A DNA stretch of 10,226 nt from positions 1-10,226 of the IMG/VR virus record IMGVR_UViG_2681813004_000013. The stretch is one strand, 5' to 3'. The stretch comes from a virus (Duplodnaviria; Heunggongvirae; Uroviricota; Caudoviricetes). A program made the position numbers and the translations under genes. Position 1 is the first letter of the stretch. Each line of letters opens with the position of its first letter. A model generated the notes under the pieces. That model worked only from the letters and a program-made list of their open reading frames with translations, did not search any database and was not told the DNA's origin. Below, one piece after another: positions 4,347-9,438 of this stretch.

Positions 4347-4505
4347 AATGACGCCCTCTGGTGGTTTCTTAATAACTCACCACCGACGACGCCAATCATC
4401 TGGTGGTGAACTGTGCGGGGTTGGCGTAACCGGGAAACCGACCGGCGCGGATCTCTCCGCCCCCACACAGCCCACCATAATTCAGATGTGCGCGTGCATA
4501 CGACA

Positions 4506-4529
4506 ATAAAAAACACGCTCGCGGCGTGT
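4506..4529 (-). terminator. tR'-like intrinsic terminator of the short late leader transcript
   Basis: Minus strand ACACGC-CGCGA-GCGUGU followed by UUUUUUAUUG. Lies about 70-80 nt downstream of the putative late promoter. Confidence 0.6.
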
Positions 4530-4590
4530 ATCTGTCGCGGTCTCTATCCAGGACGCCAATCCCGACGCCAGATTTTGCTGGCGCGTGAGG

Positions 4591-4620
4591 AATATAGCCC
4601 CGGATAACAGATTGAGTCAA
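4591..4620 (-). promoter_or_regulatory. Putative Q-dependent late promoter (pR'-like)
   Basis: Minus strand TTGACT (4620-4615), 17-18 bp spacer, then CTATAT/TATATT (4597-4591). The -35 overlaps the Q stop codon. Directly followed by the short leader and terminator, as in lambdoid late regions. Confidence 0.5.
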
Positions 4621-5183
4621 CAGACGGTTTTTAGATCCCCGGAAGAGAATGCATCACGCATCGGCAGATAGAGCATAAACTCTGCCATTTTCAACCACGC
4701 ATCTATGCGATTACGGCACGTGGCGTAACACCACTCAGGGTGTGAATCATTCAGCAATTCAGCCATTTTGCGCTTAGTCATCCCCCGCCCCACATAACGC
4801 TGACTCAGAACATTGAGCAGCCCGGGATAACCTGCCAGTACTTCACCAATAACCCTGTCGATTATTAACGCCTCTGAATCGGTACAATGTGCCAGCCAGC
4901 TTTTTTGATTGCCGTTGATCATATCCCGCAAAAAAGCCTCAAGTTCAGGTTTGTCCAGACCCGCTTTTTTCATCCTCCGGAGCGCCTCGTTAATTGCCGT
5001 TTTTGTCAGCTTTTTAGAGGTCAGTAATTGGTTGAACATATTTCCCGTCTTACCGTCGCCAATATACGACCAACGCCCCCACATACGCAGTTTCCCCTGG
5101 ATCCAGACACTTTCCAGCGTTTTCAGGCGTAAATGCTCACCGCTTTTGCCTGTAATTTCCGGGTATATCATATTTATGCTCAC
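4617..5183 (-). CDS. Late-gene antitermination protein Q (lambdoid Q-like)
   Basis: Sits between rusA and the pR'/tR'-like elements, the canonical Q position. Size is 184-188 aa; the MWGRWSY motif resembles the RWGRW segment recalled from E. coli prophage Q homologues. The track start is GTG at 5183, overlapping the rusA stop; an in-frame ATG at 5169-5171 is the more likely start. Confidence 0.65.
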   Translation of the reverse strand: MSINMIYPEITGKSGEHLRLKTLESVWIQGKLRMWGRWSYIGDGKTGNMFNQLLTSKKLTKTAINEALRRMKKAGLDKPELEAFLRDMINGNQKSWLAHCTDSEALIIDRVIGEVLAGYPGLLNVLSQRYVGRGMTKRKMAELLNDSHPEWCYATCRNRIDAWLKMAEFMLYLPMRDAFSSGDLKTVC

Positions 5184-7236: not shown

Positions 7237-7270
7237 AAAATAAACAACAAAAAACCCGCCGAAGCGGGTT
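7237..7270 (-). terminator. Rho-independent terminator of the hok transcript
   Basis: Minus-strand RNA AACCCGC-UUCG-GCGGGUU (UUCG tetraloop) followed by UUUUGUUGUUUAUUUU. About 70 nt downstream of the hok stop. Confidence 0.75.
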
Positions 7271-7338
7271 AAGTGCGGGTGCGTTGAGGATGCCTGACAC
7301 ATCAGAGGTGGCGAGGGATTTCTCCCCCGCCGGGTCTC

Positions 7339-7494
7339 TTACTCCTCAGGTTCGTAAGCTGTGAAGACAGCGACCTCCGTCTGGCCGGTTCGGATTCGTA
7401 CCTCGCAGAGGTCTTTCCTCGTTACCAGTGCCGTCACTATGACGGTTAAACAGATGACGATCAGGGCGATTAACATCGCCTTTTGCTGCTTCAT
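7339..7494 (-). CDS. Hok-family type I toxin (membrane-depolarising peptide), HokD/Gef-like
   Basis: Hand translation gives MKQQKAMLIALIVICLTVIVTALVTRKDLCEVRIRTGQTEVAVFTAYEPEE (51 aa), which carries the canonical Hok signature (TM helix, then TRK-LCE-R-G--EVAAF-AYE). AAGGAG SD upstream. Not in the ORF track because it is shorter than 60 aa. Confidence 0.85.
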   Translation of the reverse strand: MKQQKAMLIALIVICLTVIVTALVTRKDLCEVRIRTGQTEVAVFTAYEPEE

Positions 7495-7614
7495 AGCCTG
7501 CTTCTCCTTGACCTTTCGGTCCGTAAGAGGCTAATCTCTATGTGTCGCATAGATATGGCCTCAGATTAATGTTAAGCGTCTTGCCGGACGCGTAATGTTA
7601 ACTGGGGCTTTTCT

Positions 7615-7650
7615 CTGTCTGCCTTACGGCGGCATGCCCGAGGCAGACAG
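7615..7650 (-). promoter_or_regulatory. Long stem-loop in the presumed hok mRNA leader (9-bp stem, 18-nt loop containing the palindrome GGCATGCC)
   Basis: ctgtctgcc (7615-7623) pairs with ggcagacag (7642-7650). No U-run follows on either strand, so it is not a terminator. It lies in the region where hok-family loci carry mok/sok/fbi-type RNA elements. Confidence 0.35.
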
Positions 7651-7711
7651 CCTCAAGCACCCGCAGCAATTCTACTTAACTCTCGCTTTACAGCAAACCG
7701 TTTTTGCCCGA

Positions 7712-7842: not shown

Positions 7843-7951
7843 ATTCCCTCCCTTGGTGTGAATTCCGGCGAACGTTTTTACCCCCACCGACAAATAACAT
7901 ATACTAGAAAAGCAATAGCTATAGCAACGCCTGCAAATGCATCGGGCCGGC

Positions 7952-8785
7952 TCATTGGTGCGCCCCCTGTATCGCTTCTACTGCGATCTGACTGGCGTAT
8001 TTGTTAATGGTAACGATAAGTTCTTGCTCGGCCTCATCCAGACAACCACCGATACCTCGCCTGTCACCTTCAGAAGCATCGAAATCTGCACGAACCCTGG
8101 CGACCTTCAGGATTGCGGACAACACCTCATCAGGGATTGCCGGAGAGTTGGTTGACGTTTCCGAGGTTATCCGAAAATTATTGGTTGACGAATTCTTATT
8201 TTCCCGAAAGTTTTCGGCATGAAGCATGGCGGTGTTATACCCATCCGCGAAAATCTCTGCTTCTTCGTTATTCAGTTCGGCACCAAGTTTAAGCGCAATA
8301 GCTTTTGCCATTGAGGCGGTAATTTGATGGCATGGCTGACGTCCATGAAGCATGGCGTCGCTCCGCTCTATGCCATCCAGCGCAATTCGAAGCGCATGAA
8401 TTGTAGTAATGCTATCGTTTGGGGTTATTCCGTATCGTTCGAATACAGCGATATGGTTGCGCATAATCGCAGGTGTAAGCTCTTTGTAAGCAAGAGCAAG
8501 AGGTCCAGATACATCGTTCAGCACTACCGTCATCGGTGAGGCGGCGTAGACTTCAATAATCCCAGTATCAATAGGCCATTCCCCATCCTTGATATAGTAA
8601 CTTGTTCCGTCAACTTGCTGTTCTACAATGTGGAAAGCACCTATTGGTTCTGCTTCCAGCGATGCCAGTGCAATTTTGAATAACTCGCCCTCTACCCGTG
8701 CCATCCCTGAATTGGGGTAGCATTTCGCAATCGCTATTTTTAATTTGGCTTCTTCGATTAATTTCTCTTTGGTTAATTCAGTCAC
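7952..8785 (-). CDS. Hypothetical 277-aa protein of unknown function (two predicted domains joined by a Ser/Thr/Asn-rich linker)
   Basis: Long ORF with protein-like composition. The only in-frame start at the 5' end is GTG at 8785, served by a hairpin-bridged AGGAGG. The linker is NSSTNNFRITSETSTNSPAIP. No family recognised from the sequence. Confidence 0.6.
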   Translation of the reverse strand: MTELTKEKLIEEAKLKIAIAKCYPNSGMARVEGELFKIALASLEAEPIGAFHIVEQQVDGTSYYIKDGEWPIDTGIIEVYAASPMTVVLNDVSGPLALAYKELTPAIMRNHIAVFERYGITPNDSITTIHALRIALDGIERSDAMLHGRQPCHQITASMAKAIALKLGAELNNEEAEIFADGYNTAMLHAENFRENKNSSTNNFRITSETSTNSPAIPDEVLSAILKVARVRADFDASEGDRRGIGGCLDEAEQELIVTINKYASQIAVEAIQGAHQ

Positions 8786-8816
8786 TTTTCATTACCGCCC
8801 TTTCGGGCGGCCTCCT
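8783..8816 (-). promoter_or_regulatory. Structured translation-initiation region: AGGAGG, 16-nt GNRA-type hairpin, then GTG start
   Basis: Minus-strand RNA AGGAGG-CCGCCC-GAAA-GGGCGG-UAAUGAAAA-GUG. The linear SD-to-start distance is 25 nt, reduced to about 9 nt if the 6-bp GC hairpin forms. Confidence 0.4.
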
Positions 8817-8820
8817 GACA

Positions 8821-9033
8821 TTAATCGTTGTGATAACTCATAGCTTCATTTGCAGCATCAACTGGATCAACATCCCACCAGCAATAATTTGGGTCGACAC
8901 CTTCAGGTGTCCACGGCTCTAATTCATTTTTTGCTACATTCTCGTCACCAGTAATTTTAAAAATCTGCTCAGAGAATTTTTTTACCCACTCGTTATATTT
9001 TTCCGCGTTAATGGTTTTCTGTGTATTTAACAT
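8821..9033 (-). CDS. Hypothetical 70-aa acidic protein
   Basis: ATG at 9033 with GGAGG SD and a 7-nt spacer. Translation MLNTQKTINAEKYNEWVKKFSEQIFKITGDENVAKNELEPWTPEGVDPNYCWWDVDPVDAANEAMSYHND. AT-rich relative to its neighbours. No family recognised. Confidence 0.55.
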   Translation of the reverse strand: MLNTQKTINAEKYNEWVKKFSEQIFKITGDENVAKNELEPWTPEGVDPNYCWWDVDPVDAANEAMSYHND

Positions 9034-9078
9034 AGATATACCTCCGGTTAAGGATTAAATTTTATTTACAGTGCTGAT

Positions 9079-9438
9079 TTAATATTCAGTTCTGGCTTTT
9101 GTTGCCCTGCGTATCCGCGCTTTCGCGTTACGCTCAATCTGAATTAGCTTTTCTATATTTTTTCGCCTTTCCTGTTCCTCCTGGCGCAATAGCCTTACAT
9201 CATCTGCCAGTCTGGTTTCTCTTTTAGCCACAGAGAGCATCCAGTCAAACGGCTCCACAACTGCACCACAGATTTTGCAGCGGACCTGACGCTCTTTTTC
9301 GTCAACCCGGACAGAAGCGTGATGGCAGTATGGTCTTTCCGATGGCTCATAAAGAAAATTAACCTGATTACGTGGGTCATCCTCTTTTACCGGAAATAAA
9401 ACGATATTGCTTAACTCATCTTCTGGTTTTATTTCCAT
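9079..9438 (-). CDS. Hypothetical 119-aa protein with a Cys/His cluster (putative zinc ribbon) and a basic coiled-coil C-terminus
   Basis: Preferred start is ATG at 9438, preceded by AAAGGAGAGGAG; the track's TTG at 9489 has no SD. Contains YCHH…(15)…CKIC, then a Lys/Arg/Glu-rich helical tail. Confidence 0.55.
   Translation of the reverse strand: MEIKPEDELSNIVLFPVKEDDPRNQVNFLYEPSERPYCHHASVRVDEKERQVRCKICGAVVEPFDWMLSVAKRETRLADDVRLLRQEEQERRKNIEKLIQIERNAKARIRRATKARTEY

Follow-up and report, generated by a model that had tools for sequence, protein, structure and literature searches.

The sequence considered here, referred to as the window, is a stretch of 10,226 nt from a virus of the class Caudoviricetes (IMG/VR record IMGVR_UViG_2681813004_000013), and the element of interest is a short intergenic region in which a Shine-Dalgarno (SD) sequence and the start codon behind it are separated by a hairpin. 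The genes of this region all lie on the minus strand. A 70-aa gene, itself preceded by a conserved intergenic linker, is followed by the sequence AGGAGG, a GC-rich hairpin closed by a GNRA tetraloop, a short A-rich spacer and the GTG start of a 277-aa open reading frame (ORF) (Table 1). In the preliminary description of this DNA, AGGAGG was placed 25 nt before the GTG with the 6-bp hairpin and its GAAA loop between them, the stop codon of the 70-aa gene was placed 4 nt before the SD, and folding of the hairpin was said to leave about 9 nt between the stem base and the start. All three statements agree with the sequence: the hairpin occupies 16 of the 25 nt, and 9 nt remain. The spacer also holds an out-of-frame ATG (8792), which opens a four-codon ORF (MKSD and a stop).

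Table 1. Features of the proposed split initiation site, its flanking genes and other elements of the window.
Feature	Position	Strand	Basis	Remarks
Second conserved intergenic linker	9041..9090	minus		ACTGAATATTAAATCAGCACTGTAAATAAAATTTAATCCTTAACCGGAGG; ordinary SD GGAGG, 7 nt before ATG 9033
70-aa gene	8821..9033	minus	PHROG	phrog_4659, unknown function
TAA stop of 70-aa ORF	8823-8821	minus	sequence	preceding codons CAC AAC GAT
Interval between 70-aa stop and AGGAGG		minus	sequence	TGTC, 4 nt
SD AGGAGG	8816-8811	minus		abuts hairpin, no linker
Hairpin, entire	8795..8810	minus		CCGCCC-GAAA-GGGCGG, six G-C pairs
Hairpin 5' arm CCGCCC	8810-8805	minus
GNRA tetraloop GAAA	8804-8801	minus
Hairpin 3' arm GGGCGG	8800-8795	minus
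Spacer, A-rich, 9 nt	8794-8786	minus		TAATGAAAA / UAAUGAAAA; no SD-like sequence
GTG start of 277-aa ORF	8785-8783	minus		next codons ACT GAA TTA ACC
277-aa ORF	7952..8785	minus	homology	Eaa / 'DUF551 domain-containing' family
hok/sok type I toxin-antitoxin locus, complete	7339-7662	minus
hokD-like 51-aa ORF	7339-7494	minus	Pfam	HOK_GEF, E = 1e-23
sok antitoxin RNA	7492-7662	minus	Rfam	105.9 bits
Stem ACCCGC-TTCG-GCGGGT	7254-7269	minus
Weak isrK-like match	7249-7330		Rfam	30.5 bits
C4 a1/b1 target	4545-4597	minus	Rfam	50.5 bits
isrK	4508-4584	minus	Rfam	75.5 bits
C4 antisense RNA	4399-4482	minus	Rfam	67.8 bits
tRNA gene	2346-2418	minus	Rfam	72.5 bits
tRNA gene	2191-2263	minus	Rfam	73.8 bits

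The hairpin is the sole element of the predicted centroid structure. Its six G-C pairs, together with a possible seventh pair between the last G of the SD and the first base of the spacer (G8811-U8794), give a predicted free energy of -14.4 kcal/mol at 37 C. In an 81-nt context, the folding z-score is -2.55, and one of 200 shuffles folded as well. As a structure alone, the hairpin is not beyond chance in 10 kb: two perfect GC-rich stems of 6 bp with a 4-nt loop are observed against 0.24 expected, and at least one such stem occurs in 22% of 500 dinucleotide shuffles. Its placement, together with its conservation in the thousands of loci found by sequence comparison, is what puts it beyond chance. 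The existence of an RNA structure is argued from thermodynamics and sequence conservation, not from covariation. Unpaired probabilities were predicted in a 126-nt context and amount to 0.00 for both hairpin arms, 0.74-0.97 for the central GGAG of the SD, 0.66-0.99 for the spacer (U8794 excepted) and 0.35-0.72 for the GTG, the middle base of which has the value of 0.35. The SD and the start are thus mostly at 0.7-0.97 with single bases lower, including A8816 at 0.34, and no fold sequestering the SD or the start is present among the predicted alternatives (centroid and pairing probabilities). The duplex of AGGAGG with the 16S anti-SD sequence ACCUCCUUA is calculated at -10.3 kcal/mol. The 3' arm of the hairpin and the next U (GGCGGU) are also SD-like, with about -8 kcal/mol against the anti-SD if free; this stretch is predicted to be 100% paired, and thus fully sequestered in the stem.

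In the preliminary description, it was suggested that translation of the 277-aa protein is conditionally controlled, for example by temperature. This suggestion could not be upheld, because the free energy of the hairpin is still negative at 95 C, so that it is predicted to stay folded from 25 to 95 C, and because the SD and the start are located outside the stem. RNA thermometers of the ROSE and fourU types pair the SD or the start in weak, mismatched stems that melt at 30-42 C. The present hairpin is similar to them in its position within the translation initiation region (TIR) but differs in leaving the SD and the start unpaired, and an RNA thermometer is rejected as an identity. An intrinsic terminator is rejected as well: no U-tract follows the stem on either strand (UAAUGAAAA on the coding strand, CCUCCUGAC on the other), and no terminator was called in a scan of 8500-9200.

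The SD, the hairpin and the two nucleotides behind it form a portable unit of 26 nt (AGGAGG CCGCCC GAAA GGGCGG TA), referred to below as the cassette. Of 5426 complete Escherichia coli genomes, 2638 match a 37-nt cassette query, at 4874 places in all and at most nine per genome; O157:H7 is among the carriers of several copies. Scanning viral contigs for the exact 16-nt hairpin gave at least 119 loci, and about 95 among these matches listed carry the full unit of AGGAGG, hairpin and TA. In the phage collection, full-length matches belong nearly all to temperate phages of Escherichia, including ArgO145, Stx2a-converting phages, mEp460 and Rac-like phages, and one full-length match comes from an Actinobacillus phage record. 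The cassette is absent from the Rac and Qin prophages of E. coli K-12, even with two mismatches allowed. No Rfam covariance model matched 8783-8816, even at E <= 5, in a search that did recognize other window elements. No paper with the exact hairpin string turned up in a literature search, and a general one on SD, stem-loop and spacing yielded nothing beyond T4, rpmE and thrS. Judged by these matches, the cassette is a portable intergenic element of the lambdoid, Rac-like and Stx prophages of E. coli.

Two cassette copies have been observed in some phages, namely ArgO145 (L002) and four viral contigs (L023, L051, L097, L112); in the four contigs, the paired copies are 1064 nt apart. In the second copy of ArgO145, the base that closes the loop is changed from C to T (CCGCCT), which gives a U-G pair.

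Among the matches listed, about ten unrelated gene starts follow the cassette, and their ATG codons are located 6-9 nt past the stem. The encoded N-termini include those of Eaa-type proteins (MTELTKE, MAELTKEW), of a DUF7167-annotated protein (MRKFKIIIETG) and of DUF4014-annotated proteins (MKHYLEKNYP, MTTLFRKEYP, MVTLFRKKYP), as well as MQDIKENIRQ, MLTLKHFIDI and MEITKERLLE. In the copies examined, the spacers between the hairpin and the ATG are A/T-rich and hold no G-rich motif or SD. The exception is the MEITKERLLE type, which has its own GGAG after the hairpin and an 11-nt spacer. For the DUF4014 gene, the DUF7167 gene and a hypothetical gene, the starts called by the Prokaryotic Genome Annotation Pipeline (PGAP) coincide with the ATG 6-9 nt past the hairpin.

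The same gene families have also been found in other surroundings. Among 80 DUF4014 homologues gathered by protein similarity, about 60 are preceded by the cassette and about 19 have unrelated sequence upstream; in the latter, the ATG or GTG at the same codon follows AAAGGAG with a 6-nt spacing or GGGAG with a 4-nt spacing. Likewise, Eaa paralogues found elsewhere in the fetched loci lack the hairpin and carry AAGGAG 6 nt before their ATG. Because these families use an ordinary SD in other contexts, the AGGAGG of the cassette appears to stand in for the canonical SD. In addition, cassettes in which the SD core (GGAG or GAGG) is lost tend to be without an intact downstream ORF (104 distinct contexts, 79/19/1/5, Fisher P = 0.002, uncorrected for shared ancestry and comprising only about four independent SD-loss events).

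A further feature of the DUF4014 genes is a one-A difference in the poly-A tract after the start (AGAAAAAATATCC versus AGAAAAAAATATCC), which causes a frameshift in many copies (L177-type, L205). One of the shifted copies is flagged as 'frameshifted' by PGAP. Either recurrent slippage or a common pseudogene allele would account for this variation.

The SD, hairpin and start of the window are probably, if not with great certainty, a constitutive split (structure-bridged) TIR of the type known from T4 genes 38 and 25, as judged from sequence, folding predictions and analogy. This model is preferred over its rivals because it best accounts for the narrow range of 6-9 nt at which the starts follow the stem and for their lack of ordinary SDs. 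The stable GNRA hairpin would always be folded and would take 16 nt out of the 25-nt distance from AGGAGG to the start, so that a 30S subunit bound to the exposed AGGAGG would reach the start 9 nt past the stem base. The cassette would in this way supply the sole SD for whichever small early gene follows it. Since the SD abuts the stem without a linker, the SD/anti-SD helix could, in addition, stack on the stem. We infer both that ribosomes use AGGAGG across the hairpin and that they do so constitutively. Of the earlier proposal, the bridging of the SD to the start is thereby retained as the most likely explanation, whereas the conditional switch attached to it is unsupported.

Structure-bridged initiation has been described in T4. 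Structure cuts the spacing between the SD and the AUG to 5 nt in gene 38, where the linear distance is 22 nt, and to 11 nt in gene 25, where it is 27 nt; mutations that destabilize the structures lower translation, as established by mutagenesis, reporter fusions and dimethyl sulfate (DMS) probing (reviewed in PMC3014915, with reference to Nivinskas 1999, J Mol Biol 288:291, and Malys and Nivinskas 2009, Mol Microbiol 73:1115). The cassette shares three traits with these genes: the linear SD is too distant (22 and 27 nt in T4, 25 nt here, with a functional limit of about 15 nt), a local hairpin brings the spacing into the working range of about 5-13 nt (5 and 11 nt in T4, 9 nt here), and the site is located at an intercistronic junction in a phage operon. 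The sequences are unrelated, however, and the carriers here are temperate lambdoid phages rather than T-even phages. Furthermore, each T4 structure serves one gene, whereas the 26-nt unit precedes about ten unrelated genes and is located at a mosaic junction. The function of the T4 structures was proven by mutagenesis and probing, while for the cassette we infer it. A second comparison is offered by the non-contiguous TIRs of rpmE and thrS in E. coli, which are likewise interrupted by a stable stem-loop. In these genes, the hairpin stands between an AU-rich enhancer and the SD and functions as the operator for an autogenous repressor (PMC7297116), whereas the cassette hairpin separates the SD from the start and has no known repressor.

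The mechanism would therefore be of a known kind. What is new is that one SD-hairpin unit is reused ahead of about ten genes, in prophage copies that number in the thousands. Few genes have been proven to possess a natural split initiation region, T4 38 and 25 foremost among them. If the model is true, the cassette would be by far the most widespread example, as it is present in about half of the complete E. coli genomes, Stx-converting phages included. It would also provide a natural experiment, in which one SD-hairpin unit drives many coding sequences at 6-9 nt. In practical terms, cassette genes may be missed or given a wrong start by gene finders that look for an SD 5-10 nt before the start codon.

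Two contexts have been observed upstream of the cassette: the 70-aa gene, as in the window, or a 23-nt stretch joined to the second linker. Most cassette copies are without the 70-aa gene (context B); in these, no upstream gene ends closer than about 75 nt, and the hairpin is not traversed by any long ORF. The second linker has the consensus (A)CTGAATA(A)TTAAAT..AGCACTGT.AA.AAAATTTAATCCTTAACCGGAGG and occurs at many loci (for example, L005, L024 and L065). It follows at least five unrelated upstream genes, with homology starting inside their last two to three codons. The 23-nt joiner GATTTCTGCACCCTCAGAACATC of most phages can pair with the first SD. In the window, stops and starts that overlap as TAATG produce the frame ATG TCA GGA GGC CGC CCG AAA GGG CGG TAA (MSGGRPKGR and a stop) and, behind it, ATG AAA AGT GAC TGA, and TA[AG] follows the hairpin in most cassette copies. 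Stop-start coupling by an upstream ORF through the hairpin was rejected, as the frame in the common context has only 20-30 codons and its ATGs are not conserved.

These contexts bear on the suggestion that initiation is conditional, with temperature, an RNA-binding protein or coupling to the 70-aa gene as the control. As the 70-aa stop is 4 nt before the SD, a ribosome terminating there would sit on the SD, and some coupling in the window context is plausible. Coupling as a general requirement is contradicted by the cassette copies themselves, most of which have neither the 70-aa gene nor an ORF ending nearby. GNRA hairpins can serve as protein-binding sites, and the boxB hairpin of lambda is an example. 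BoxB has a pentaloop (GAAAA or GACAA), is located about 8-10 nt behind boxA and occurs once each just downstream of pL and pR. It is similar to the cassette in its short G-C stem, its GNRA-type loop and its location in an early phage operon, but the cassette has a true tetraloop, no boxA-like motif, an SD abutting the stem and multiple copies deep in operons, and no Rfam match was obtained. A lambda nut site was rejected as an identity, as the upstream sequence CAACGATTAATGTCAGGAGG is without boxA, the loop is a tetraloop and copies are located between distal small genes. With a hairpin predicted to be folded to 95 C and no alternative structure at the SD or the start, conditional control is scarcely probable.

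Conservation of the hairpin in homologous loci had been proposed as a check and is confirmed as far as sequence identity goes, in thousands of copies: the stem is exact in 78 of 80 loci that were chosen by the upstream protein and not by the hairpin. Natural variants were sought in viral contigs by four degenerate scans, each with a non-consensus base forced at one of stem positions 2-5. Position 3 is changed from G to A in 21 contigs, seven of which have a compensating C to T that gives an A-U pair, and position 4 is changed from C to T in 48 contigs, giving a U-G wobble. Eighteen mismatch variants and two wobble variants were found at position 2, and the scan of position 5 returned no variants. 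The loop variants found, GAGA and GGAA, are both still of the GNRA type. Two cassette copies are strongly decayed, one of which (L207) precedes an Eaa-family gene that is annotated by PGAP only as a pseudogene fragment.

Several of these and other observations weigh against a bridging role in initiation. Covariation is not significant: among 12 variant types, there is one pair changed on both sides, a count reached by 129 of 500 shuffles. Variants with a mismatched stem (CGGCCC, CAGCCC, and CCACCC with C) still precede intact ORFs, and the near-identity of the cassette could come from recent spread and recombination rather than from selection on RNA structure. The hairpin is also kept where no start follows (L166, L109, L018, L009), and it may thus have a function independent of initiation. 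At the locus itself, the 277-aa gene may be decaying in this prophage lineage, as its sequence comparisons suggest. Finally, the folding model leaves room for GGCGGU, a one-mismatch SD at canonical spacing, to be the real ribosome contact if the stem were opened.

This last point has been extended to a reading in which the hairpin is inhibitory, with the masked GGCGGU of the 3' arm (5-8 nt before the starts) as the true contact and AGGAGG as a standby site for the 30S subunit. Its duplex energy if free and its canonical spacing in all cassette copies are in line with this, but with a stem of six G-C pairs predicted at -14.4 kcal/mol and an unpaired probability of 0.00, spontaneous opening would be negligible. 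Judged by footprint size, a ribosome that stops at the end of the 70-aa gene would get no further than the stem base, and upstream translation is absent in most copies. An inhibitory hairpin is therefore considered very unlikely.

The position of the cassette relative to breaks in homology has also been compared. Phage matches span the window from 8773 or 8787 to 9100, sharing the 70-aa gene, the SD and the hairpin and differing in the downstream gene, while a set of E. coli genomes matches 7900-8818, sharing the 277-aa gene, the hairpin and the SD and differing upstream. Homology thus has its limits at 8773/8787 and, on the opposite side, at 8818. On these alignments, the cassette sits exactly at a mosaic junction, and the variable region starts directly 3' of the hairpin. 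Every joint observed is at this 3' edge, including the insertion of a convergent module, and by the same comparison the cassette pinpoints a hotspot of mosaic exchange within the accessory regions of prophages. It may either promote the exchanges or merely survive them. Short linkers at module junctions are reportedly a trait of lambdoid phages in general, in the tradition of modular evolution (Susskind and Botstein) and of later comparative work on HK97, HK022 and HK620. The cassette is similar to these linkers in being a short conserved intergenic sequence between unrelated modules, with homology breaking at its edges; it differs in its RNA-level anatomy of SD and GNRA hairpin, with a plausible translational role.

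The convergent module is present in L166, L109 and L018. It is AT-rich and consists of two genes on the opposite strand, and its 3' end, located 12 nt past the hairpin, takes the place of a start codon. The encoded proteins have 184 aa (membrane-like by eye) and 299 aa, and neither PADLOC nor Pfam searches of the two gave a match.

The location of the joints has suggested another reading, in which the cassette is a boundary element that protects mRNA ends, is a processing site or is a recombination linker, with AGGAGG incidental or a relic and with weak translation from A/U-rich leaders. This is in line with the joints at the hairpin 3' edge, with about ten downstream sequences that start right after GGGCGG, and with the two copies about 1 kb apart in some contigs. 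The retention of the hairpin where no start follows and the lack of significant covariation fit as well, and the stem is better conserved than the SD in the loci chosen by upstream protein. However, the tight 6-9 nt band of starts would be left unexplained, as would the SDs that are missing here and present in homologues elsewhere, and the tracking of SD loss with ORF loss. The roles are also not exclusive, since a boundary role is already contained in the split-site model. As a substitute for that model, a boundary element is unlikely, though it deserves consideration.

The split-site model can also be combined with the junction in a more speculative proposal, according to which the 26-nt unit is an 'expression dock', that is, a preferred recombination joint and a universal structure-bridged ribosome-binding site that serves a slot of variable gene content. 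Small genes of foreign origin, or even whole modules in reverse orientation, would be swapped in, and they would be expressed when located 6-9 nt behind the unit. We regard both the dock and this way of operating as rather doubtful. The hairpin of such a dock might be specifically recognized, as RNA or as single-stranded DNA in Red/RecT-type recombination. Its logic would resemble that of an integron-like cassette system with a single site, here for accessory genes of phages.

The 277-aa ORF downstream of the cassette belongs to a large family. A protein search with this ORF gave 6589 homologues, which are lambdoid-phage proteins of a hyper-mosaic family, and nearly all of the 120 homologues listed begin with M-[TSA]-x-[FIL]-T-K-E at the GTG codon. 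This N-terminus is shared even where the next 30-40 residues are unrelated. The GTG had been described as the only possible start at the 5' end of the ORF, and this is correct: an in-frame TGA (8791-8789) is located two codons before it, and the next in-frame ATG is codon 28. By homology, the start position at 8785 is well supported. The variable sites in the first 27 codons are distributed as 8/1/8 over codon positions 1/2/3, which gives weak support for coding.

The start codon itself is a different matter. Close relatives read TAATGAAAAATGACTGAA. All relatives have ATG at this codon, and one A-to-G change turns it into the GTG found in the window. Twenty-two fetched loci carry the GTG allele; the 277-aa frame is kept in six of them, six have a 123-aa ORF, eight have a nonsense codon at position 32 and two have a frameshift. 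Because the relatives all have ATG and the GTG-allele copies are often broken, the GTG start, on these comparisons, is not a designed feature. For the same reasons, expression of the 277-aa ORF at the window locus may be weak.

The protein lacks a part that is present in some relatives. It has 91% identity to P0003 over residues 1-224 and is divergent after this point, while P0003 carries DUF551 at residues 220-287; this C-terminal domain is absent from the window protein. A Pfam search of the 277-aa protein gave no match, and its PHROG matches are all of unknown function. The conserved N-terminal and central modules of the Eaa family (M-T-x-x-T-K-E and IALASLEAEP) are present in the window ORF. 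Over the family as a whole (P0001-P0120), mosaicism extends below the gene level: MTxxTKE, in the first seven to eight codons, and IALASLEAEP are conserved, whereas the 30-50 residues between them and the later modules occur in several unrelated versions.

The annotation of this ORF is inconsistent. In two E. coli genomes (L003, L004), of which one is identical over 7900-9100 and the other 98.9% identical over 7900-8818, the PGAP annotation is limited to the final 96 codons (7952-8239), which are labelled a pseudogene, 'DUF551 ... missing N-terminus'. The full 277-aa ORF is thus uncalled in two genomes matching at 98.9-100%, which makes it a case in point for annotation. NCBI records do contain the 277-aa protein, at 99% identity (P0001, 52 member sequences). 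The non-canonical start context may contribute to this inconsistency.

These results raise the question of whether the locus is a relic, the 277-aa ORF being a decaying Eaa gene in a defective prophage and the GTG a mutated ATG. The retention of the ORF in only six of the 22 GTG-allele loci and the ATG of all relatives are in line with decay, as are the missing DUF551 and the absence of a full-ORF call by PGAP in genomes matching the searched 1.2 kb. On the other hand, the 277-aa frame is open and is annotated in NCBI (P0001), the SD and hairpin are intact, and GTG is a functional start codon in E. coli. A relic at this locus is possible, with a small chance of being the right description.

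Other elements of the window have been identified downstream of the 277-aa ORF (Table 1). These include a complete hok/sok locus, and further away isrK, a C4 antisense RNA and an a1/b1 target, which together (4399-4597) look like an antisense immunity or anti-repressor control module of the P1/P7 type within this lambdoid prophage, as judged from their sequence matches. The two tRNA genes are located downstream of a Q-like region, an arrangement typical of Stx-type prophages. The only other perfect GC-rich 6-bp tetraloop stem of the window, ACCCGC-TTCG-GCGGGT, is located just downstream of hokD, inside the weak isrK-like match, and is probably a 3' structure or terminator of the hok mRNA.

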